Origin: Catajapyx aquilonaris
Lineage: Eukaryota
DNA: 34,443 nt
Reading direction: 5' to 3'
Assembly (NCBI GenBank): GCA_000934665.2
Contig: JYFJ02004143.1
Coordinates: 1 to 34,443, forward strand
A program made the position numbers and the translations under genes. Shown in pieces: positions 14,251 through 34,443 of this stretch. Each line of letters opens with the position of its first letter. Positions within the stretch are counted from its first letter, which is position 1. The notes below the pieces were generated by a model that had not been told where the DNA came from, searched no databases, and saw only the letters and a list, made by a program, of their open reading frames with translations.

Positions 14251-17200
14251 ATGTCTAAGAAGCCCAGCTTGTCTGAAAAGCTGGCCGAATTGGCCAGTAC
14301 AGCACCAGTATTTACCGCACCAGACGAAGATGATGTGCATCCAGGTACCACGTTCTATGCAATTCACCAAACATTGATTTACTTGGGCGTGTGTAATGAC
14401 CAAAAAATGCAACTGAGACCGCACTTGTAATTACATTTACAAATTGACTTTCAGAGACGAGGGCCAAGGTGGCTGATTGGGAAGAGGAGGGGGATTCGTT
14501 GGATGAGGCACAGTCTGCAGGTCGGAGCCAGCTTCGAGCAAGGGCGGAAGGCTTGCTGCAGGATGTGGACAAGCGCTACTCTGGAAAGTGCGTTTCCAGG
14601 AAGGAACTGCTTAAGCAGCAAGGGGAACTGATGAGCGACGAGGATGAGGACTCTGGACCAGAAGATGACCAGGAAATGGGAGGTGAAAGCGGCGATACCT
14701 CGGATGAGAGCCAAGCTGGGAGCGATGGGTGAGGAAACAAAATTGCTCAGGTCATACGAACTAAAGCCATGTTTACATGTGAGCGATTTGATGAGCGAGG
14801 ACACCACTGAGCGAAAGTAACAATTGTGGTAACAATATATTTTCGCCCCAAACAATTGGTCTCATTGCTGCGACATCGCTGATGGAATCTCTCACATGTA
14901 AATGCGGCTTAATAGAGTTCAACCTGCCTGTACAGTGTTGATCATGAATCGAGGCATGTTGCTAGCGACATTTTCAAAAGTGGCAGAAGAAGGAATCGAA
15001 GATAAGCATAAGCATACTACAGGCCGGGCGAGCAAGAGTCCTTCTTCTGCCGGTTCCGAAAATGTCGCTGGCAGTATGCCTCGATTTATCACCAACACTG
15101 TACCAGACTGACTTCCTATTATTAACTTGTAATGGTCAAAATTGCAATAATTAAGAGTGCATGTCTGGGGCTGATCTGTATTGCTATGATAGCACTGAAA
15201 AGAAAGTCAAGATGCATTGCGTCAATCTTTTATTTTCCAATGGTGATGCTGCCATTGCAACTGACTTGTAAGAAAGGATTCGCTGTTGGCAACCATATTT
15301 ATTTACACAAGCTGACAGTTTAATATTACAGGTAGCCCTTGTTTTACAACTGTGAGTCTTTGCTCTCATGTATGGCAGTCTCAACCGAAAAATCTTTACA
15401 GAAATACAATTGTTGCCTGTTAGCATGCTGTTACTTGAGATTTAAGAAAGGTTAGATCTTCTGGACATCATGAATGTTGAATCTGCATGCCTTGGCAGCA
15501 CTGGAATGTATCTGCCGTCTCTCTTAAAGAGAGGATCTTGTGCACTGGAAAACCTGGAGTTAACTCCTGACTGCTGCTCATTTGTGCCTCCGCAACCGCA
15601 TACAGAGAAAAACCCTCGCCACAAATTGGTTGAGGTCCGTTCCCTCAGTACATGGAATGCAAAGATCAGGAAACCTTGCAAAGTGTTGAACACACAGAAC
15701 AAATAGGTAAAGAGTATTCGGGCACCACCAATTGCAAAAGCACCAAAGAGCCATGTTAGCCCAAGAAGCACAAAAACACAGACAGCCATACGTAACTGGG
15801 TCACCGCAAGTCGGTATTGTTGCTGGTTGCATCGCAGGTTCGCTCTTTGGCAAAAGATGCCGTGAATTATCATTCCGAAAATTGCAGTGTTCACAGCCAA
15901 TATGGCAAAGAGTGGTATTAAAAATGCATAAAGGAAGGCATCAGGTGACATCCAACAGTATGACTGACCTGATGTGTATTGTGATGGGTCAGTAGCTAGC
16001 ACGGCTATCACAGGCACAAATGGGCAACCCCAGGCACTTAACCCAGCTTTCCACATGAAGCGTGGAATGTACGTACCAATAACTTTAACAAAGCGGAGGT
16101 ACTGATGTGTTGCTTCGACAAACATCCAACAAAATGTTGCAAGGATGAAGTAGTGTAAGGTTGCTGCAACTGTACCGCAGAGAATAGGGTTCCAAGTCTG
16201 GTGTATGCCAGCAAGAAAAATTACATACACAGAAAACAGAGCAAATGACAAGTTCACAATGATGCGGTTGCCCAAGGGTTTACGCCATCTAGGAAATAAC
16301 ATAAACGTAGTGAACACTAAGCACAGGCCAAGTATTGAAATGCTGCATCCAATTATAGTTATCAGGTCCAGTACAAAGCGATGTGATGGATCAATTGCAG
16401 ATTCACCATCTTCACCGTAATAGCTGATTAATTCGGCAAATGACGTCAGATGATTACACAAGCACACATCCTTTCCATCTTCATGACCAGCATACTGGCA
16501 ACCATCTTGTGACCATTCACCATTCCCACCGTTTGCTTCAAAGTCCCAGAATACACAAGTTGGATCTTCATCAACTGCTAGTCTCGGCTTGAACAGGATC
16601 TTGATCGCAGGGGTAACATCCCTAATAGCTCTGTCTCGTATGCTTGCTTGTACCACTGGTGCATTAACAACCATGCCACTACGATTACGGACAGTGTCAA
16701 ACAGAGTAGATTCGTTGTACACCACAAAAGAGATTCGAACAGTGCCTGCTGTTATGTTATCAACCAAGGTTTCAGGCAGGATTAAAGCAGCAGTTGTGTC
16801 AGGGTGTAAGTTAATGTTATCCCGATAGAGTGTGTTAATCCTGATCACCTCACCCTCAGGATTTGAGCTGAAGCCAATTACTTCTGGTTTTTCAAGATCC
16901 CACACTTCATATGACACATGTTCTCGCTCACTTTTGTAGCTATTCCCATTAACATTGCCATCTTCTGGTACAGTTCCTGACAATGTGATTGCTTCAGCTG
17001 CACTGACAATTCGATTGGACGTGTTTAGCAATTCTTGTGATGTAACTAGTTTGTCATAATTTACTCTGACCAAATTGCGAACCAAAGAAAATGAATCGTC
17101 CATGTTAACATGTGATATTTGTTTTCCATCAGACATTGCCTCCAGCAGTCTAGTGGCATAATGAACGTCGATTGGATTGAGCTTCCCTGGGTCAGAAGTT

Positions 17201-20200
17201 AATTCTTTTGCCAACTCAACATTACCAGCCGATAAACCAACAGTAATACTGCTTGGGTCACCATCACATTGTCCATCATATTCCCATCCTGCCCCATGGT
17301 TTAAACTACCTCTGCATTTAAACAGTACCGGCTTGCCATCTGAATTCAAGCATGGCTGCTCAGGCACAGAGTAACGATCAACTGGAGTTTCTTGGAGGGT
17401 TACAGTTTTAGGAGGAACCCCAGCTATTGTTAAAGGCCCTCCAGGACATGTGATGGTGCTACGAATAGATAAGACCTCCGTGCTTCCAACAGTGGAGTTG
17501 ACAAGTTCTGACAGGGTTGTCCATACCATGCGCTCATTTGGTGTGTTACTGACTGGATCATAATCTATCTCTAATCTCAAGGTTGCAAGGAGCCCATTTG
17601 CATCCGAAGCTAAATTGGTTACTGTCATGGTAACATTCGCTTGCATTAGAGGCATAAGGAAATCAGATACATGCACACTTAAATTGTGCCCGTATGAAGG
17701 GACGCCAAATGTGAAGTCATGCTTTTCAGGGCGGTATACGTCAGATCTGTCAAGTACATGCACTAAAAATGTGTATGTATTTTTCTTTACATACAACACT
17801 GGTGCTGACTTGATGTATGTTAGACTTGAAGCACTAAATGCATCGCACTGGTAGTACCCTTGTTCACTTACATGCAAATGATCCAGACATGTACCACTGC
17901 ATTTGTAGAATAAGAATCCATCGTGAAAACACCTAAACATGTGCATATCAGGTGAAACAGTAACTGTTAACTCCCTGTCATCTAGTACAGTATGTATGTA
18001 TGACATGTAAGAAGGACGCTCTCTTTCACATATAACATTTGAAACAATGTCATCATTAAGTGAGACGAGTCCCATACGTGATATTCCATATTGTTTTGAC
18101 AAATCGAGTGAGGGATCCCATGCCATAGTTTCCGGTAGCAACAAGTCTCCTTGCATGTCATACATGGTTCCATTGTGATTAATAAGGTTGAGCCATGTTG
18201 TGGTGTTGAAATAACCTGAACTGCGAACGTGCAATGGGCTGGAATCATGTTTCCTGCATACATCATTAGCTTCCTTCCAAGTGACATTCTTGAATTCTTT
18301 GTAACACTTATTGTGTCGTGGAACAAGTGAATTTGAAGACCATCCTGGCTGACAGTCATAGGTCTCATTATTTGCATCGTTTACTTCCAGTACGCATGCA
18401 TAGTTGTACTTACTGTTACAGTCTGCTGCAAACAGTGTCCTATTGGGATTCATTGCAAGGCAATCATAATTTCTCTTAGGTTCGCCACTTTCCCAACTGG
18501 CATTAAACATGTCTGTTAGTGGATAATCTCCTGTGTTAATGTCAGTGTAAGTGATGCCAATGTACGTCAGTGGGCCTCCAGAAACTATGCGCTGGTATGG
18601 GAGCCAAACTGATGCATTTTTAAATGTCAAATCCATATCGAAAGGTGACACTTCCAGTCCAGAACTTACGCATGACTGGAATGCACCACTCCACGTGTCA
18701 GCAGTTATCACTTTTGCACAGGTGTTATTGTTATATTGCTGGTATCCATATGGGCATGCATGATGGAGATAGGCACGTCTATAAGTACATTCATGCGGAT
18801 CAAATTTACTCCACTTTGCAGATGGAAACCCCCACTTGCACTGCCTTGCTAAAACTTGATGTTTGTCAGTAACACACAAGGCATCACTAGGTACGACAGT
18901 CATACCATCTTCTGCTATAGGCCACTCGTATTCACCAGTTTCATTGCTGCACACAGTCAGGAAGTAGAATGCAGACGTATTCAAGTACTTGAGTGTTCCA
19001 AACACGTAATCAGACATGAAGCCAGACCAGACCCACTCCAAGAGTTGATTTTTGCAATCATTCACAGTCAAGTTAACATGCAGGTAGTACCAGTGGTTAA
19101 CAATAACACCCTGAGAGAATTCCCTGTAGTCTGAGTGACTAAAATCCCATTCCCCTGCTGTGGTTAGATTAATTCCCTTCCTCCGCATCTGACGGGTCAC
19201 TTTCTTTGGTACAATAGATGAAATGTCATTGTTTGTCAACACATGACTGGTCATTACAACTGCATTTAATATATTCTCCAACTCGACTAGTACTGCATTT
19301 GACCTAACTCTCTCAAGGCGGCCTGGAAACCATCCCTCACACCAATACCGCCCCTGGCGACTGTACAGTGTACCTGGTGTAGACATGCGGCGAGTAATAT
19401 CATTGTACGTTGTCGGCTGCAACACTGGTGCATGTTGTTGCATGTATACTCCATCCTTGACCCAACTGACCTGCCCTGGACCTGACAATTCACACCTCAA
19501 AGTTAAGTTGTGAAATTCAGACATGTCAAGTACAAGATGATCATCTGCAGGGGTCATTTGAGCTTGTGCATTTTCATAGGTCCTTGTGATTTTGATGTCC
19601 TCTGGCTGATACAAACATGCAAAAGGAAGCACCATGTTACACTCCTCGGTGTGAAGCAGTGGTGGTGACAATTCAAATTTAGGCGACATGAGCTTGACAC
19701 AGTCGCCACCATTCTTCAGGTTGGGTTCCTTTGGGTGCCAACTCCAGAGGTTTTCTCTCTTGTATTCTGCAATATACATTATTACAATGAAAAATTGATG
19801 GCCACTTACGATCAAAGAAGCATTAAAATGGTGTAGGTCACAGTAAAACAATCTGTATTGCAACCTGGACTCAGTTGAAACATGACCTGATTTACATTTA
19901 CATTGCATAATAGCACTTCTATGATGATGTATCAAAATTTATATATTTTTAAAAGCAAGATACAATATCTTAAGTGACATGATTTTGTCATTGTACGTTG
20001 GCAATCACATTTTTTAAACAATTGATTTGTTATAGAATTTTTTTCTCATACCTGCATTCCGTCCAACCCACTGGAAGAATCCATTGAGTTTCTTCATGGC
20101 AACCCACATGCAATCAGGATGCATGTTGGCGATTAAGTCATCCAGCACAGACTACAGAAAAATATGCATTAGTCATTCAGTCACATGCTGCAATTTATTC

Positions 20201-22180
20201 ATGTGTGATAACATGCACTTGCTTAATAATTATTATCAGAGAGTTGCAAGAGGGATTTAAGTTATCCCTAAGTATGGAGGTGGCTAAGTACCGTACCTTC
20301 TGTGTTAGGCCTGCATGCTTGTTATTGAAATTCTCAGGAAATAATATTCCTAAGTGCTACCCTTTAATTCGTCTTACTGACTACTCACTTGAGGTGCCGA
20401 CTCATCCAACAAGTATCCACCGTCCTTGCTGCACAAATTTGCAGCGTCTTTCCAGGTCACTTCAGTGGCATTGTAGTGATAAAATATCCCATTGCTATAC
20501 TTCATATGTGGTGGCACTGACACTTTTTGTGCACTGATGGTGACACAGATCACTAACAAGGCAAGGTATGCAGGTGCCATTATTGTGACTCACAAAGTTT
20601 AGGTGTCACCAAGTAATGTTGGCGTCCAAGAGTTGAGTGGTGTAGGACCATACAAAGAGAGCCTGCTTGGCTATCTTTTCCCAATCCAAACCTGCGCTAT
20701 AAGTGACCTCCGGGGATTCATAATCACCAGAAGTGCTTCCAGGAAGGCCAGGAAGTCACTTCCTGCCTTGTGGCTTTCTTACGTCTTAATAAAGATGTTG
20801 TTCAGATTGCTGCAGAGAAACTTATCTGCGTGGTTTTGTGTTCCGGCACTAATAAGCGTTGATCCTTTCAGGGAAGATGACATCAAAAGTGACGGAGAGA
20901 ATGAGAGTGCAGAAGAGGTTGAAGGCCATGAGGGAAGCGACAACAGTGAACAGGAAGAGGAGGGTGATGACACAGTACAGGTCATCACCGCCACAGATAT
21001 CTCAGCAGAAATTGAGAAGGGCAAGGCAACAAAATGCCAGCTAGGTAAGCTATTTTTATTCAAGTTGCTGCAAAAGGGTACTCACATCACAATGATAACA
21101 ATAACTTCCGACAATGTCAACAATGTAACTGATAATGAAAAGCTGATGACATCAATCCAAGCGTAACGTTGCAAACTTAGGCAAAATGCAAGATAAATTG
21201 GTCCGAGTCGTTAATTTTCTTCTCCAGGTGTGTGGGACAATCTTCTGGAGATGAGAATCAGTCTACAAAAAGTGCTGTCAGCGGCCAACCGTCTTCCTCA
21301 GCATGACACATTCCCAGCATTCCAAAAACAAGTTGGAGGTGAGTTCCAGTCAGCTGTCCAGAGTGGCCAGAGCTCTGTGAAGAACCTCCTGGATAAATTC
21401 CTGGAGTTGCAGCACCAGCTTCTAAGGCAGTATCCTGAGACAAAGAACCTGGGAACCAATGAAGCTAAAGAAGAATCTGAGTCTGATGAGGAGATTCCAA
21501 GTGACTCAGACGAGGAAGCTGAGAAAGAAATAAAGGATACTGATGCAGATAATGAGGCAGTGTCACCAAAGAAAATGATGAAATTAGAGGAGTATGAGTC
21601 ACATGTTGCCCAGGTCCACTCAGACCTAGCCCAATTCCGTGATTCCACCATACAAAAGTGGAATGACAAGACACGCGTTGCCTATGGGAAGACAAGTAGC
21701 AAAAATTTCAGTGCATTTGAGCAGTCAACACTTAAGCAAATATCACAGCTGCTTAGTGACAAGGAGAGGCTGATACGTCGGACACAACTGAAGCGTTCCG
21801 TTTACCGCGCTTTAGGACGGAAGGAGGCACCACCTGAAGGCGGCTCAGCAGCAAACGCCAGTGAATATGATCCTGAAGTGTTTGATGATGATGACTTTTA
21901 CCACCAACTATTGCGTGAACTCATAGAACGTGATGCCTCAGGTGAGTCTGATCCCACACAGCTAGGACGTAAGTTGCTGGAGCTTCAGAAGTTGCGCAGC
22001 AAATTACGGCGCAAGGTGGACACCAAAGCCAGCAAGGGAAGGAAAATACGCTATGACATCCACAACAAGCTTGTCAACTTCATGGCGCCTGTGACTGAAC
22101 GTGGCATGGCAGAGGCTGCAAAGAGTGAACTTTTCAACTCCTTGTTTGGCCAAGTAACAACTCAGAGCAATGACAAATGA
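14251..22180 (+). CDS. AATF: AATF / Che-1 / Bfr2 homolog, 4 exons, 497 aa
   Basis: Exons 14251-14344, 14455-14728, 20872-21044, 21228-22180 (1494 nt, phases 1/2/1 consistent). Motifs DKRYSGKCVSRK, EIEKGKA..QLGVWDNLLEMRISLQK, FDDDDFYHQLLRELIE and VDTKASKGRKIRY..KLVNFMAP. Confidence 0.93.
14933..15100. mobile_element. 168-bp palindromic Tc1/mariner-type MITE in AATF intron 2
   Basis: 62-bp inverted arms starting CAGTGTTG and ending GGCAGAAGAAGGA (52/62 identical by hand count). Flanked by TA at 14931-14932 and 15101-15102. Confidence 0.85.
15442..20580 (-). CDS. Adhesion GPCR with C-type lectin, Ig-like, HRM-like, GAIN/GPS and 7TM domains, 3 exons, 1538 aa; nested in AATF intron 2
   Basis: Exons 20580-20389 (signal peptide MAPAYLALLVICVTISA), 20151-20052 and 19766-15442 (4617 nt in frame). 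GPS motif CVFWD..GEWSQDGC..CLCNHL/TSFAEL, followed by a class B2-type 7TM (LHYFILATFCWMFVEA, WGCP, YCW, LLGLTW, NTLQGFLIF). The first 56 residues of the 1497-aa ORF call are intronic. Confidence 0.92.
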
Positions 22181-22252: not shown

Positions 22253-23919
22253 TCACCAGGAAGCCCAAGGTGGAGTCATCGGCTGTGGATTCTGCAGGTA
22301 AGACATCACCACTGCCGATATGGATAGCCTATAAAAATAAAGTGGTGGTTATTATTACCTTTTCTTGATCCTCACAGATAGGGGTATTGACATTTTAAAA
22401 TCATCGTGCAATGTACATTTGAGATTGAAAAATTGGCAATTGCATGCAGGTAGCACCAGAATTGCATGGATGCAATATGCCATAAAAAGTGATTCAATAC
22501 TCCAATAGGGTACTAATAAACCTCAGTCACTGAGGAAGTGCAATGATCAATGGCATTAGTTCAAAATACCACAATTCAATGCGATTTGGTGGAATGGGAA
22601 AGTTTACAAATTTTTCTCATCACATGAAACAATCATGGTGAGAAAGCATTTCATTATATTTTCTATATAGACTTATCTTGCTCATGGCTGGGCCACAGGT
22701 CAATGTTTTGGTACGTCCATGTGCCACATGATGAAATTACAAACTCTCTTTCCGCTGAATCGCACGTAAATGGGGATCTTTTAAAACTTTGTGTGGTGTG
22801 TCTTTTTACTCACAAGTTAGTGACATCAATATTTATTTGTACCCAGTGCTTGAATAATGCTTTCATGACGTAGTGCATGAATACTTATAAGCAACCCTAT
22901 TCATGTCATTTGGGTACTTAAAATAATGGGTGTCAAAAAAAAATGTGGCCTTCATCAAGACATAAATGACCTGATTTGTTGGGGACATTTTCAATAATGC
23001 AACATTAATTTACATAACTTGATTCCTAAATATACTCACATGAAGCTGCTAAGGATCTGTTTTGTGTCATCATTCACCCTACAGTTCGCAAAACTTATGC
23101 AGGAGCAGTACAGCGCAACCCAGGCACACCATTTTAACTGAAAATACATTTGTTAAGTCGTCACTCATTGATGGAAACAGTGGTGGGCGCCGCTAACTTC
23201 CGATAACAGCTAACTTGCCCAGTACAACCATGGACATCGCTAATGCTAAACAGCTAGAAGGTTAGTGGAAATACCCCTAATAAGTCTAGCTGTTTATCAT
23301 TAGCGATTTAGAGCCGCCCACAGTTTGCTAACCGAATCACCAGTTAGTGGAACTAAAAATTTCGGTTAGAGCCCACCACAGGATGAAAAGTAGTGTAAGT
23401 TATAAGAAACTGTTGCGCCATAAATATTTGAGGCAAGGGTTTGAGATGGCCTTTTTTTGTTGTTTCTATAGTTAGGCCAGATTTTTTTTTTACAGTTTTA
23501 CTATGGTAGGCCTACACATCTGTGGTCAATCTGACTCCACAATGAGCAGAAACGTAGCTTTCTGTGGGGATAGAAAACCCACCCATTTTGTCTATACCAA
23601 TTAATACCTCGCACCAGGTCCCTTGGCCTAGTGGTTCGGCATTCAGTTGATTGGTAAGGAGATCCCGATTTGAATTTCATTCCACCCATTCGCTACACCT
23701 TGTGCCCAGCATGTAATGACTCCCACAGTTATTGCTACACACAACCACCAAGTAATTTACCCTCATCATCAGTCCGCACATGCTGAAGATCATCCCAAGC
23801 ACGTTCATGTAATCAGGGGTCAGGTCCTCTCCTGGCCCATTCTGAGAGTTGGCCGCAGGGGCCTTGTACCGCTGGATCTTGTCCGGCCTCTTCGGATCAG
23901 TAGAGTTGTTCACAGACAT
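22253..23919 (-). CDS. WDR83OS: Protein Asterix (PAT complex subunit), 3 exons, 110 aa
   Basis: Exons 23919-23761, 23137-23040, 22328-22253 (333 nt). Spliced product includes [71 protein letters not shown]. Confidence 0.95.
23178..23381. mobile_element. 204-bp hAT-type MITE in Asterix intron 1
   Basis: 11-bp TIRs CAGTGGTGGGC / GCCCACCACAG (1 mismatch). 8-bp target-site duplication GATGGAAA (23170-23177) / GATGAAAA (23382-23389). Internal repeated GCTAAC/GTTAG motifs. Confidence 0.8.
23617..23680 (+). repeat. Possible decayed tRNA-derived SINE head
   Basis: A-box-like TGGCCTAGTGG (23624-23634) and a degenerate B-box-like GATTTGAATTTC about 33 nt later. No intact cloverleaf. Confidence 0.3.
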
Positions 23920-24093
23920 TTTCCTCTCGTCTCAACAAAAAAATAAATGTGCGCTGTTGAACCAAAGGTGAAACATGGTGTGAGTGCACAATTACCCAGA
24001 CAATAATACCCGTTAAATGATTCCAAACCGTTCCAAACGAAGTGAAGCAACAACACCTGCGAAAATGCTTGTGATGGCTGGCGGCCACGTTTG

Positions 24094-24592: not shown

Positions 24593-27500
24593 TCATTTTG
24601 ATTTCGGTTCGAGCATGTCTTCAGGCCGCACCCACTTCTTGAATTGCTCTTCGGTGAGATGGCCCAGATCCAAGGCGGACTTCAGAAGGGTGGTTCCCTC
24701 CTTGTGAGCCTTCTTGGCAATCGCTGCGGCCTTGTCATAGCCAATGTGAGGATTAAGGGCAGTGACCAGCATGAGGGACTCGTTCATTAGCTTGTTGATT
24801 CTCGTCTCGTCAGCCTCGATTCCAGACACACACTTGTCTGTGAAGGCCCCACAGCTGTCACCCAGGAGGCGGATGGAGCGGAGGACGTTAGCCACTATCA
24901 TGGGCTTGAAGACATTCAGCTCAAAGTGTCCGTTGGATCCACCCACTGTCACAGCAACATTGTTGCCCATAACCTGGAATAAGTTTATAATAAATTGTTT
25001 TAATCCAAAACTGAGCTGTTTGGATTTTCACCACGCATTCAGTGACATCCCTAATTTGGGAGAAATTATTCAATGCACAGTAAATGCCAAACCTGGGCTG
25101 CGACCATGGTGATAGCCTCACACTGAGTTGGGTTGACCTTTCCAGGCATGATGCTGCTTCCTGGTTCATTCTCAGGAAGCTGCAGCTCTCCTAGTCCACA
25201 CCTGGGCCCAGATCCTAGGAACCGAATGTCGTTGGCCACCTTCATGATGCTGCAGGCGACGGTGTTAAGTGCCCCGCTCACCTCAACCAACGCATCATGG
25301 GCAGCTAATGCTTCAAACTTGTTTGGCGCAGTCACAAACGGTAGTCCAGTCAGCTCAGCAACCTTCTTAGCCACCTTCTCGTCAAAGCCCTTGAATGTGT
25401 TGAGACCAGTGCCAACAGCCGTTCCACCCGCAGCCAGCATGTAAGCCCTAGGAAGTGTGTCTTTAACACGAGCAATTGCAAACTCCAATTGCTGTGCATA
25501 TCCGCTGAACTCTTGCCCCAACGTCAGTGGGGTTGCATCCATTGTGTGCGTACGTCCAATCTTTATTATTCCAGCGAACTTCTTGGCTTTTGCGTCTATG
25601 GCAGCACGCAGCTTTTCAAGCTGTGGCAACAAGGTTTGGTTCAGCTCCATAGCAACAGCAATGTGCATGGCTGTCGGGAAGGTATCATTGGAGCTCTGCC
25701 CCTTGTTGACATGGTCGTTGGGATGGACTGGTTCCTTGCTACCAAGCTTACCACCCATAATCTCAATGGCACGGTTGCTGATCACCTCATTTGTGTTCAT
25801 ATTGCTCTGGGTGCCTGATCCAGTCTGCCAAATGACCAGGGGAAAGTGTCCCTCGTCATACAGCTTCCCTGATATGACCTCATCAGCTGCTTTTGAGATG
25901 GCCTCGGCAACCTGGAAAGAAGGAAGAATATGTGATGACAATTTAGTAAAAACCTGGTTGTTACTGGAAGGAAAAATGTTATAGGACAAACAGCATGAGA
26001 GAAGTCTGTGCCACTATTAATTCGGAAAAGTTACAACTTACAACACATAACTGATTTTAAATACTGCATTAGTAATTACAAAATAATATAAATTATTGCA
26101 TTGTGAGCAGATAAGTCACTTATGTAATTATATAATTGACTTATTTGCTCACAATGCAATAATTACATTATACTATCAGGAAACAATCAATGATGCTGAT
26201 AATATCAATGTGATTAGCTTTAATTCAAGAGACCCCTTCACGGAAGTTACCACACAACCTACAGTATTGCTTCATGGTGCTGATATTTGGGACATTATTC
26301 AAGGTCTGTGGGCAAGGCATGTTCATGTTTCAGGCAGCAAGTGTGAAGTCGCATGCAACGGATGCTTCACAAGGACTCCTGAGTAATTAATGCTCCACTG
26401 AAAATGTGGCGAAATACTCTTAAAAATAGTTTCAATTACAAATTTCATACTTTTTCCCTTTCCTTGTGGTGAAATGAAAAACAAATCTTTTCCTGCTTCA
26501 AAAAAACCAATGCACATGCCACTTTCTGTAAGTCTTTTTGACGGGAAAGTAGTCAAACTGTCCCCATACCATGCCGCTTTTGCTGTAAGATTAACCCATG
26601 GTGTAAATCTGAGAGAATAATCACCGTAAATCTTGAAAGCATGAATAAATTTTTAAATGAAATTAGCACCTTATTTTCAAAACTCCCAAGTTTAATCACT
26701 TGAACCATGATATCTTGCTTAAGTAGGCACGATACCATTTCAGAACGCCAAACGCGCCCTTAGTTAGATAATCTAAAGTAGTTTCCATGACCTACAGATA
26801 TGCAATCCTGCCCTTCAAAATCCACATAACCTTTATTACTACTGTCTAATCTGGGATCATCCTAATAGGCATTTCAAACAGAAGATTCAACTATTAACAA
26901 CTTATTAACTGTATTTCTGGTTTATTAACTGTATTTCACATCCCCAAATCCTTGAGATGCCACATTACGTCACCTATTGGTCCTATGCTATTTTCGGACG
27001 TAAGTGGTTTGGCTGAAGTGGTGTGATACCACAACCACCATGCATGAATTTCTCTCCCTCCGTCTTTTATTTTATTTTTATTTTTTTCAACAATTTATTT
27101 AGTGGACCCGGGGGGGGGGGGGGGGGGGGNCGCAAGTGCAATGTTGTTGCTTGGTCATTTTGTAAACTCCCCCGGGTGGATTCGTCTAGCAGAGATTCCA
27201 CCCGAGACGAAGCCAGAGATGACCCCTAACTCTGCACGAGATGAAGGAGGGCATTGGCCAATCTTAATTATCAGCATTAATAGAAAATTGGTTCTTGTGC
27301 ATGAAGCAAATGCACTTTTTTTCATGCCAATCAGCAGCAATAATGGCAGATTTTACATTAATATGCGCTCATACCCAATGCTTCACATGTTCACTAAAAT
27401 TCCAATTATACATGTGTGCACACGTTTGGCTGCCCATTGCAATACCCTACAGGAAGGAATCTCACACTGTAAAACCTGGTAAAACCAGTAGCATACACCC

Positions 27501-28117
27501 ATAAATTTAATTGTCATCTGCCATTCTAGACTGACATGCCACAGCAACTTGCCATCACAATTTTCACAAATTTCATAATTGTGACTTTCAAACCTGGATT
27601 ATTGCAATTTAAAAATGGGTAGGTAAATGCTGAGATTCAGTTTTTCATCTGATATCATCAGGAGTAACCCTACGGGCTCATTTAGAACATGTGACATATG
27701 AATTTTAAAACAAGAACCATGAGGCGGTTAAGTGTACAACCAACTCTTTTATAACATTATTGCGCTACATGGAACCCACGTTATTACTTTAGGATCTAGG
27801 CCAAATTCCTGGTTGACAAGAGCGGCAGCCTTCTTGAGGATCCCAAAAGCGATGACCACCGGCCTGGGCATCCTCTCCGGCACCCCTCCGATGGGGAAGT
27901 TCATGACGGACCTGAGGGTCTGCGCCCCGTAGTACTTGTCCGCAGGCACATTCAGCTCCCCGAAGGTGTCCTTCTCCACCCTGAACTTGTCCATGCTGGC
28001 TGCGGTCCTGGAGAGCTCCCTGTGCGTAGTGCCTGGTGTTGCTACGACAGCACCCAGTCGGAGTCTGAGGCTGGTGTGCCTCAGCCCCAGCTGGGTCACC
28101 GCTCTTGTCAAGGACAT
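24593..28117 (-). CDS. FH: Fumarate hydratase class II, mitochondrial precursor, 3 exons, 509 aa
   Basis: Exons 28117-27788, 25911-25093, 24973-24593 (1530 nt). Motifs [50 protein letters not shown] and signature [15 protein letters not shown]. Arg/Ser/Thr-rich N-terminal presequence. Confidence 0.97.
27110..27130. other. Poly-G run ending in an ambiguous base, likely assembly or sequencing uncertainty
   Basis: A run of 20 G followed by n at 27130, inside FH intron 1. Confidence 0.7.
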
Positions 28118-28678
28118 GCTTAGAATATTCCGGGGAGGGCCCTTAAGCCGCTTTTATCTTCCACACGCCAGATTATTGCCTTATCACGTAAGGGAAGCCT
28201 TTGGAATCCCTTCCAAGTTTAGCCAAGGGCAATGGGAGGAGAGGTCTGGCAACGTCGCACCTCACCTACAACTGGCAACCCTGATCCAACTGTTGGCCAC
28301 TTTGTTTAATAATTATAATCAAAATTCTAGCGTACCTCATGTAAGCGTAAATTACGTGCTTGGGCGTGGTTGTTCGATTTGATTGCATGTGTGCCGGCCT
28401 CCAGTGCTCAGAAGCGTTGGCACCCCTGCAGACATCGTCAGCATTGAAGTCGCCAGCTGATGATAATTTCTCCTTCGTTATCATCCGTCGCATGCCTTCT
28501 TATTCTGCCGGATAATCACCCCTGGTACGCTGTAAGTACTCTGCATTCCGCTTCATCTTGTAATTGATGGAGGATGTGAAAGTGCTGCAGTATCACAGCT
28601 TCCATATGGGATGATCCTCACTCTCTTGATCAGGAAGGCTTCTTGGGGTGTTCCAGGTGGAATTATTGAGAGAGCAAC
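28118..28678. promoter_or_regulatory. Divergent promoter region shared by FH and BET1
   Basis: Head-to-head ATGs at 28117 and 28679. TGGCAAC motifs at 28247 and 28273. Confidence 0.55.
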
Positions 28679-30880: not shown

Positions 30881-32128
30881 ATGTACTCCTCATCTGAAGA
30901 TTTGATTTCGGAGACTAAATTTTTTTCAAAGCAAAAGCTGCTGAAACAGGGTGACGCACCAGTGACTCCTTTTTTCGCATTGGTCGTATTCATTGAATTT
31001 TGTGTCATTGTTCTGGTTGCTGTGCTGGCCTACTATCTCAGGTAAGAATACAGTCATGGAAATGATCAACAGGCAATATTAATAACTCACATTTTCAGAT
31101 TCACAGATGCATTCCAAGTCTATCATGGGAATATCAAAAATTGCTCCAACACTCAACATGAGCCATTTCGGGAACCACCGTACCTGTACAAACTAAGAAA
31201 CCAGGTTTTCTACAGTGTCCTGATTGTGGTTCCAGTTGGCTTGGTGAGTTAAGTGGAGAGTTCTTATGAGTCAGTCGTAACACACTTGCCCGTTTCAGAT
31301 TTTGAGTGGCGAAGTACTCAGAATTATTGTGGCAGACAAAGTGGAGAAGACACTACTTCTTGGAAGTCTGCGCTTTCCAGTTTGGCTCCGACGCCTGGTG
31401 CGATTTATAGGTAAGACTTCTTAGTTTTAATAATCACAAGTCGTGCACTTATGATTGTCATTTTGGTGCAGTACATACCAATGCAACTATGAGCCACACA
31501 ATTATTGCCTAGTTCAGAAAAAAGTCCAACCCTATTGCAATTCTAACTTAAATGTAGGATGTATCTTTCATTGGAAATTACTTTTTCATCAGGCATTTTC
31601 ATCCTGGGTCTTCTGTTGACATCTCTGCTGACTGATACTCTGAAGTGCTTGACTGGCCGACCCCGCCCAAACTTTTGCCAGGATGACTTGAATGCTGACC
31701 CGAAAAGGAGGGACATAACTTCTTTTCCATCCTTCCACTCTTCCATGTCGACCTTCTCTGCTACCTTTGCCTGCCTTTACGTGCATTTCCGATTCTCTGT
31801 GAGTGGCGTGTACACTCTGAGGCCAATCCTAATGGCTGCACTTACCTGTGCTGCTTTCCTTGTCTGCTGGCAACGGCTGCATAGCGGACTCCATCGGTGG
31901 GATGATGTTCTGGCTGGTTCGATACTGGGACTGTCTATTGGACTGTACCAAGGAATCTGTATGTCTGGAAAGTTTCAGGAGTCAACTCCAGGGCAGGAAG
32001 TTATCCAGCAGCAGCTGCCGATTGCCATACCAAGAATCAAGTGTCGCAACCCATTGGCACAGGCTGTTAATGATAATGTATCTCTTGTGGACTCTCAGTT
32101 CAGCCTACCATACTATTCAGCCTACTAA
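30881..32128 (+). CDS. PAP2-family phospholipid phosphatase(-related) membrane protein, 4 exons, 317 aa
   Basis: Exons 30881-31041, 31099-31243, 31299-31410, 31593-32128 (954 nt). Six hydrophobic segments. Motifs RRLVRFIG, C1 KCLTGRPRP, C2 SFPSFH and C3 QRLHSGLHRWDDV. Confidence 0.85.
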
Positions 32129-33369: not shown

Positions 33370-33900
33370 TTATACCCGGATTTGATCAGGTGAAACTTCA
33401 ATCTCTTGCACATGGAAAAGGGCCTGCTGTTTCAGGTGCCTTTCCAATATGGCCGCCAGACGGGGCTCCACATTACCTAGAAGTGGTCGCTTGGAAGAAT
33501 CTGCATTCCAACACTCCTGCATCAACGACCAACTCTCTGAGTCAAATTTAGTCAGACGCTCTGGTCGGATGCCTATGAAATAAAAATCCATTCACGTAAC
33601 ACTGCCATGCCTTTTCTTATTCAGAATTTTCAGGACATATCACAACATACCTTTTCGAACGTTGGTCCAGAGCTGCTCCTTGTTCTGGCACTGCTCAAAC
33701 ACGTATGGCAAGTGAATGCCGCCTGAGCAAATGTACCAAAAGAGAATCCCAAAGGCATAGACATCCACACTGCTGTCGTACTGACCAGTGAACAGTTCGG
33801 GGGCCATGTGGACTGGTGTGCCAACTATGCTCCCAGATATCATGGCCTCAGGTTTGCAAAAGCCCAGGTCTGTGATCTTCGCATGGTTGTTCTTGTCAAG
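33370..33900 (-). CDS. DSTYK: Dual serine/threonine and tyrosine protein kinase, last two exons (gene continues beyond the window)
   Basis: Exons 33900-33651 and 33572-33370. Product [85 protein letters not shown] has the family-typical DLG and HMAPE motifs. Confidence 0.93.
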
Positions 33901-34443
33901 CTGTTCAAGGCAAAATAAAGTAAAATATCACTATCAGTTCTTGTAAACATTTTCTTTGCTTGCCACATGACAGGCAAACATATGAATAATGACATGGTTT
34001 GAAATTTGCAATTGAGGCGCCTTCTTCCAAAACCCGATAAATCCAAGATAAATGGTTCCGAGATAATTGAGAAAAAGCTGTGGTGCCGAAGCTAATTAAT
34101 ATTACTAGACAGGCCCAAGTCCATCTGCTACATATGTGGATGCTGCATATGATGAGCTTTTACAAGAAAATGATCAACATCGTCAAGTCGTAGTTTCAGG
34201 AATAGTCGTTGTGGATATATCGATTTTTGCTGCAAAGAGAGTGGATTTGGCGGTTTTTGCAACATTGAGGATGAGGCACAAAATATATGGGCGAGTGGCC
34301 TTCCGTTCGATTTGCCTGAAAATCGGATATGTTGTAGCCCAGACCCTCCTGATCAATGTTAGATAGGGACATTTCGAGGTAGGACCTACAGGGAGCGTGC
34401 TATTGACCTCCGAAGGTCATATGGGATATGATCTAGTTTTCCG

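Follow-up and report, generated by a model that had tools for sequence, protein, structure and literature searches.

The receptor gene described here lies on a 34,443 nt stretch of the Catajapyx aquilonaris genome (contig JYFJ02004143.1 of assembly GCA_000934665.2; hereafter the window), and several described G protein-coupled receptors of the adhesion class (aGPCRs) offer a comparison. Vertebrate ADGRG6 (GPR126) has the domain order CUB-PTX-SEA-HormR-GAIN-7TM (PTX, pentraxin; 7TM, seven-transmembrane region), and the passages of PMC6954182 that treat it describe SEA-HormR-GAIN as a membrane-proximal stack with conformational control. SEA domains are recorded in the same passages for ADGRF5 (GPR116) and ADGRF1 (GPR110), and the pertinent part of a 2026 review (PMC13197933) gives ADGRG4 a SEA-HormR-GAIN stack as well. 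That part of the review lists five Drosophila aGPCRs, among them the ADGRX receptors Mayo (CG11318) and Ketchup (CG15556), which it describes as GAIN-7TM only and as equally related to all subfamilies (see also PMC6900090). The 'lipoprotein receptor' CasLpR of the crab Callinectes sapidus (UniProt H6CSZ0, AEK99382.1) comes from a paper whose title reports a hemocyte origin and up-regulation after lipopolysaccharide (LPS) and lipoteichoic acid (LTA) (Tsutsui and Chung 2012, PMID 22155280), and a survey of crab GPCRs places 'lipoprotein receptors' in class B2, their domains being undescribed in the passages concerned (PMC6341585).

The window gene is transcribed from the minus strand and is predicted to encode a 1538-residue protein in three exons, with GT-AG introns at the best-looking splice sites. 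The protein is an aGPCR of the architecture [CTL-Ig-SEA-HormR][CTL-CTL-Ig-SEA-HormR]-GAIN-7TM, in which CTL denotes a C-type lectin-like domain and the first SEA assignment is probable. Judged by sequence comparison, this architecture is real and is conserved across arthropods. The account that we consider reasonably likely is that of a single-copy, self-cleaving aGPCR belonging to a protostome family related to ADGRG2, ADGRG4 and ADGRG6, with a module that was doubled in arthropods and an arm that senses in the manner proposed below.

Domain architecture and family distribution

The domains, in order from the N-terminus, are as follows.

19603..20499, minus strand: CTL1, C-type lectin-like, residues 28-152, with two introns inside (family hidden Markov model, HMM; Lectin_C in relatives; EPN, no WND)
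19276..19602, minus strand: Ig1 (AlphaFold model; Ig-fold matches with Z 8-8.6 and root-mean-square deviation, rmsd, 2-3.6)
18958..19275, minus strand: X1, SEA-like (ferredoxin-like), from model topology, with a structural match weaker than that of X2
18775..18957, minus strand: HRM1, HormR-like (HHalign to HRM2 97.2%; structural and family-profile comparison)
18385..18762, minus strand: CTL2, C-type lectin-like (HHalign, family HMM)
18016..18363, minus strand: CTL3, degenerate C-type lectin-like, with four Cys and the inner disulfide pair missing (HHalign; solved CTL-fold chains)
17779..18003, minus strand: Ig2 (AlphaFold model and structural matches)
17455..17778, minus strand: X2, SEA (structural matches to SEA chains)
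17257..17454, minus strand: HRM2, HormR-like, preceding GAIN (HHalign, family HMM, family-profile comparison)
16423..17247, minus strand: GAIN with GPS, predicted cleavage H-L/T and a Stachel-like peptide after it (Pfam GPS E 1e-14; triad counts)
15664..16371, minus strand: 7TM, secretin/adhesion class (Pfam 7tm_2 E 2e-37)

The GAIN/GPS region stands directly ahead of a class-B 7TM, as in an aGPCR. An earlier note on this DNA, made from the letters alone, had proposed the order [CTL-Ig-X-HRM][CTL-CTL-Ig-X-HRM]-GAIN-7TM; every motif that it quoted is present on the minus strand, the Ig motifs starting at 19356 and 17862, and family profiles and HMMs bear out the order. Pfam recovers GPS and 7tm_2 from exon 3, together with sub-threshold matches to Ig_2 (E 0.13) and CW_binding_2 (E 0.24), and finds no Lectin_C in that exon. 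Lectin_C is listed in all 25 relatives scanned, above the curated cut-off in 20, and the CTL3 profile matches chains of known structure that have the CTL fold (E 8e-5 to 9e-3). On this profile evidence the CTL units share a C-type lectin-like fold (CTLD).

The spacer X of about 110 residues, left unnamed by the earlier note, can now be assigned. AlphaFold models of Ig1-X1-HRM1 (predicted local distance difference test 87, 53 sequences) and Ig2-X2-HRM2 (90, 66 sequences) give both spacers a beta-alpha-beta-beta-alpha-beta topology, and structural comparison (VIA) was made against 48,161 chains. For X2 the top three rows contain SEA (Z 9.0-10.5, rmsd 2.6-3.1), namely TMPRSS6 (Z 10.5), MUC16 SEA5 (Z 9.9, rmsd 2.6 over 101 residues) and a second MUC16 entry (Z 9.0); GPR126 residues 401-503 follow with Z 7.9, and Foldseek finds MUC16 SEA5 with probability 1.0, yet at E 0.012. 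Both window modules match the zebrafish GPR126 structure 6V55. With HRM1 included, X1 aligns to GPR126 376-564 (Z 7.3, 147 aligned, rmsd 8.0) in a match list otherwise made up of Ig chains; Foldseek on module 1 returns Ig chains only, and the ESM Atlas gives no usable match for the ectodomain or for X1. The family HMM misses SEA1 in the window protein, where it is visible in the model, and Pfam SEA appears below threshold in 2 of the 25 relatives. From the models, X2 is a SEA domain and X1 is probably one.

Relatives are numerous. Of 5636 candidates in a GAIN-7TM search, 638 reach E 1e-20 or better, and the top named matches are crustacean proteins of about 1700 residues (45-52% identity). An HMMER scan with the ectodomain finds 32 representatives, the best of which (E 3e-42, 27% identity) covers residues 38-835 of 835 and is collinear with the roughly 1700-residue crustacean receptors. 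Searching proteins by word matches, with the ectodomain as query, gave none among 7808 candidates, a blank that reflects its low sensitivity, since the full HMMER scan gave 32. The family HMM survey covers 174 proteins, less 9 records that are isoforms or duplicates; CTL2-CTL3-Ig2-HRM2 is present in 68 of them, and 38 of those also have CTL1-Ig1-HRM1. The collinear CTL-Ig-SEA-HormR-CTL-CTL-Ig-SEA-HormR ectodomain that places a protein in the family is present in the window protein, and the full order is seen in decapods, a stomatopod, krill, Daphnia, horseshoe crab, scorpions, spiders and a soft tick. In cockroaches and termites the proteins follow the same order minus HRM1. Other relatives have a single module: four proteins from molluscs, a tick paralogue and some proteins from insects. 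Among insect proteins, that of Cylas formicarius (P0149, 1779 residues) has one module and, after it, three GAIN matches; tandem copies were probably fused in its gene model. Searches of open-access papers yielded no description of this receptor architecture.

The lectin domains raise the alternative of a glycan-sensing pattern-recognition GPCR, as the earlier note suggested, in which microbial or host sugars bound by the lectins would trigger signalling, for example in hemocytes. We regard this as unlikely. The calcium and sugar site of a C-type lectin requires EPN or QPD plus WND. Three CTL-fold domains and an EPN motif in window CTL1 fit the idea, but EPN is present in just 1 of 37 CTL1 domains (that of the window gene), 1 of 68 CTL2 and 0 of 68 CTL3, QPD in no family lectin domain, and WND in 1 of 37 CTL1 and none elsewhere, such that no lectin domain across these surveyed sets has the complete site. 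In the window protein CTL1 lacks WND, and CTL2 and CTL3 have neither motif, and by this motif test none of them is a calcium-dependent carbohydrate-recognition domain. The LPS and LTA response in the CasLpR title also fits glycan sensing, but up-regulation does not equal binding and CasLpR is without CTL1. With the canonical motifs missing throughout the family, the lectin domains are probably no sugar binders of the classical kind, and these folds more likely bind proteins instead; non-canonical, calcium-independent sugar binding is possible.

The doubled module and its exchangeable tip

Within the single window sequence the repeat is marginal, barely above chance. Self-BLAST of the protein gives the main diagonal and no off-diagonal match; the local score of half against half is equalled by 6 of 500 shuffles, that of Ig1/Ig2 by 2 of 1000 and that of CTL1/CTL2 by 5 of 1000, and chance does considerably better with CTL2/CTL3 (125/1000), X1/X2 (562/1000) and HRM1/HRM2 (880/1000). 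Profiles taken from an alignment of 66 family sequences, with 38-66 rows for each domain, give a clear result in HHalign. The CTL1-Ig1-X1-HRM1 and CTL3-Ig2-X2-HRM2 profiles match at 99.4% over 326 collinear columns, the lectin pairs at 98.3% (CTL1/CTL2), 95.5% (CTL1/CTL3) and 92.0% (CTL2/CTL3), Ig1/Ig2 at 97.7% and HRM1/HRM2 at 97.2%, and all 39 pairs of unlike domains fall at or below 4%. An HMM of HRM1 scores a median of 24.8 bits on 87 family HRM2 domains versus 0.0 on 19 vertebrate ADGRG pre-GAIN regions, so by profile score the HRM1/HRM2 likeness is family-specific; Ig1/Ig2 scores exceed those against generic Ig in one direction (18.7 vs 6.7 bits). The tandem duplication claimed in the earlier note is thus supported at the level of family profiles, by the module match, the family-specific HormR and the single-module mollusc relatives; the self-alignment of the two halves, whose absence the note named as a refutation, is blank in self-BLAST, marginal half against half and clear in the profiles.

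Alternatively, common domains could have been shuffled into each half independently, with no module duplication. Such an origin would account for the empty self-BLAST, for X1 and X2 being unrelated in sequence and for the lectin count differing between halves. It does not fit a profile match that is collinear through four domains, the family specificity of HormR, or the same-order single-module relatives in molluscs, a tick and some insects, and we consider it very improbable and already largely refuted.

Against Ig2-X2-HRM2 the mollusc module scores 99.0%, against Ig1-X1-HRM1 96.2%, its lectin A being nearest CTL1/CTL2 and its lectin B nearest CTL3; this resemblance to both halves is as expected for the pre-duplication state. 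The ancestor would have carried one [CTL-CTL-Ig-SEA-HormR] module ahead of GAIN, as bivalves and abalone still do, and in the arthropod ancestor this module would have been duplicated in tandem. One lectin domain of the outer copy would later have been lost in pancrustaceans, and chelicerates seem to keep a degenerate form of it. Going by its distribution, the doubling is ancient and not particular to the C. aquilonaris genome.

The crab protein CasLpR is a member of this family. It shares everything from Ig1 on (Ig-SEA-HormR-CTL-CTL-Ig-SEA-HormR-GAIN-7TM), is 45% identical in GAIN-7TM and falls within the same pancrustacean clade, but it has five LDLa repeats where the window protein has CTL1, and Pfam leaves most of its remaining ectodomain unannotated. 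LDLa repeats are found in three portunid crab proteins (P0030, which is CasLpR, P0031 and P0033), and other portunid paralogues retain CTL1. By these comparisons the outermost domain is an exchangeable tip, a CTL in most members and LDLa repeats in portunid crabs, and it would set specificity. The family has therefore been met before, under the misleading name 'lipoprotein receptor'; it is not wholly uncharacterised in the sense of the earlier note, given that a member with a swapped N-terminal tip is published. LDL-receptor-family proteins carry EGF/YWTD parts. That the window protein is itself a lipoprotein (lipophorin or vitellogenin) receptor is highly improbable, the database names of two family proteins (P0030, P0035) and the LDLa repeats of the three portunid proteins being outweighed by its 7TM nature, the lack of detected EGF/YWTD parts, and the absence of any LDLa match in exons 1 and 3 of the window gene and in 23 of 25 relatives scanned.

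Fly and vertebrate relatives and the proposed mechanism

The window protein lies among pancrustacean members in all four trees, with Blattodea as its sister in three and Malacostraca in one. In the mixture-model GAIN-7TM tree, which retains 32 of 57 rows after near-duplicates were dropped and has thin outgroup sampling and some long branches, it groups with crustacean and cockroach members in a clade of seven rows (96% SH-aLRT); the long forms of arthropods, the mollusc forms and the short forms of insects fall in one 99% clade, apart from vertebrate G4/G6.

The short insect forms include Drosophila receptors of about 812 residues, which, by elimination among the five fly aGPCRs, are Mayo or Ketchup. 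These have a HormR of the family type (15-21 bits against HRM2, with 0 of 23 reversed decoys matching) and belong to the same 99% protostome clade, but are without CTL, Ig and SEA. An approximately unbiased (AU) test rejects the placement of the insect short forms with vertebrate G4/G6 (p-AU 0.007) and does not reject their placement outside the long forms (p-AU 0.114). The statement in the earlier note that the protein does not match the Drosophila aGPCRs known to its author needs correcting: sequence evidence makes a link between the short fly receptors and the window family likely. They represent a paralogous insect lineage and not orthologues of the window gene, as a termite has both genes. 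Short dipteran aGPCRs (P0148, P0150, P0152 and P0157) have an N-terminal HormR-like domain of the family type, and the Sarcophaga protein has two.

Where the best 7TM matches listed bear a vertebrate name, it is ADGRG2, ADGRG4 or ADGRG6, at 31-35% identity. The SEA-HormR-GAIN stack of ADGRG6 and ADGRG4 is present in the window protein, which differs in having SEA-HormR twice, in its lectin-like and Ig domains and in its separate clade; compared with GPR126 it lacks CUB and pentraxin and begins with CTL-Ig, and the SEA domains of its family have no conserved furin or GSVVV site. ADGRF5 and ADGRF1 share the presence of SEA and are not among the 120 best 7TM matches listed; GPR116 also carries Ig domains, the domain order of both receptors differs from that of the window protein, and their SEA has a self-cleaving GSVVV-type motif that is absent from the window family.

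Because the GAIN cleavage site HL/T is intact (residues 1203-1205, the Thr codon starting at 16446), the window protein is most likely a GPR126-like tethered-agonist receptor with a protein or matrix ligand. Among 68 members the triad reads HLT in 49, HLS in 5, HMT in 2 and HAT in 1, with no match in 11, so that the consensus H-L/T or H-L/S is present in 54 of 68. By analogy, GAIN would cleave itself at HL/T and leave a Stachel peptide. The lectin-like and Ig tip of the long, heavily N-glycosylated arm (21 sequons) would bind a protein or matrix ligand, and binding or pull, relayed through the two Ig-SEA-HormR units, would shift the SEA-HormR-GAIN stack as in GPR126, freeing or repositioning the Stachel to activate a G protein. 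Receptor cleavage, ligand class, mechanical gating and G protein are all inferred here from the described relatives.

Several observations weigh against the favoured account. X1 and X2 match at only 2.5% in HHalign and show no sequence likeness detectable by any comparison, and the SEA call for X1 depends on topology and one mid-ranked match of rmsd 8.0. In the other direction the Ig1/Ig2 score (11.0 bits) is not clearly above that against generic Ig (9.7). Arthropod double-module proteins form one clade, with insect short forms inside, in one tree and not in the mixture-model tree, and because the trees differ the timing of the duplication is unfixed. Chelicerates have about 110 extra, weakly lectin-like residues after CTL1; the prediction that this insert is a CTL3 twin is not supported (3.7-25% to CTL3, 85% to chelicerate CTL2). 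No GPR126 SEA cleavage signal is seen, the self-cleavage motif GS[VI][VI] being found in 0 of 56 SEA1 and 0 of 67 SEA2 calls. R-x-[KR]-R, counted irrespective of position in the domain, occurs in 1 of 56 SEA1 and 5 of 67 SEA2 calls, and the furin-like R-x-x-R of X1 sits, in the model, at the end of helix 1 and not in the beta2-beta3 loop, where a GSVVV-type or (R/K)-x-K-R site would be expected, for which reason it was discounted as a counterpart of the GPR126 site. Lacking a conserved furin site as well as the self-cleavage motif, the SEA domains are probably spacers or hinges and not break points.

With these points taken into account we lean, by a small degree, towards the view that an unnamed protostome aGPCR family changes its arm by whole modules, with one in molluscs, two in most arthropods, an LDLa tip in swimming crabs and HormR only in flies. 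In that case the orphan receptors Mayo and Ketchup would be truncated members whose HormR was overlooked, and the doubled SEA-HormR would act as a mechanical or ligand sensor of two stages, not seen in vertebrate receptors.

The receptor locus and the value of the family

The gene model and its host are as follows.

20389..20580, minus strand: exon 1, with the start codon, a hydrophobic N-terminus (signal-peptide-like by inspection) and the first part of CTL1
20052..20151, minus strand: exon 2, the middle part of CTL1 (open frame, GT-AG sites)
15442..19766, minus strand: exon 3 (4325 nt), from the remainder of CTL1 to the stop codon
14251..22180, plus strand: AATF/BFR2 host gene (Pfam AATF-Che1 and TRAUB; open 4-exon models, about 493 residues)

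Splicing was read from the sequence: three splice models are open, and the chosen one, with the best GT-AG sites, agrees with the alignment to relatives, in which exon 2 aligns with their CTL1. On the strand opposite to AATF/BFR2, the whole receptor gene is nested in that gene's intron 2 (14729 to about 20871); metagenome scans for a receptor nested in AATF gave two short contigs and nothing informative. One 4325 nt exon codes for nearly the entire receptor, genes nearby have many short introns, and several relatives are likewise called as single long frames on contigs; the scarcity of introns could be characteristic of the family or could point to retroposition.

A search of the same genome with the outer ectodomain finds this locus only (one match among three candidates), and the gene appears to be single-copy in C. 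aquilonaris. The best 7TM paralogue (contig C173, 85000-94900, minus strand) was rejected as a receptor of a different type, with EGF repeats and, by eye, cadherin-like and FN3-like frames; its frames run cadherin-like, FN3-like, EGF, HormR-like, GAIN and 7TM, the upstream domains also being read by eye. Contigs C609, C1063, C771, C541 and C151 have several GPS/7TM matches each, which suggests that other receptors of the adhesion or secretin class are clustered in tandem in this genome. Neighbouring genes in the window are an MBOAT acyltransferase (9535-12323, minus strand), which we take to be Porcupine-like, Asterix (23677-23931, minus), fumarase, recognised by eye (24593-28153, minus), a PAP2 phosphatase (31547-32128, plus) and a protein kinase (33640-33927, minus).

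The receptor represents no new signalling principle. Horseshoe crabs, shrimp and cockroaches alike have retained its architecture, yet databases call these proteins 'uncharacterized', 'ADGRG-like' or 'lipoprotein receptor', with most domains unrecognised, and naming the domains corrects the misleading last label. The family link gives a testable origin for fly receptors that the review describes, in the part treating them, as equally related to all subfamilies (PMC13197933). The members also form a natural series, with one module, two modules, a swapped tip and a lost tip, for testing how the arm of an aGPCR affects its sensitivity to ligand and force.

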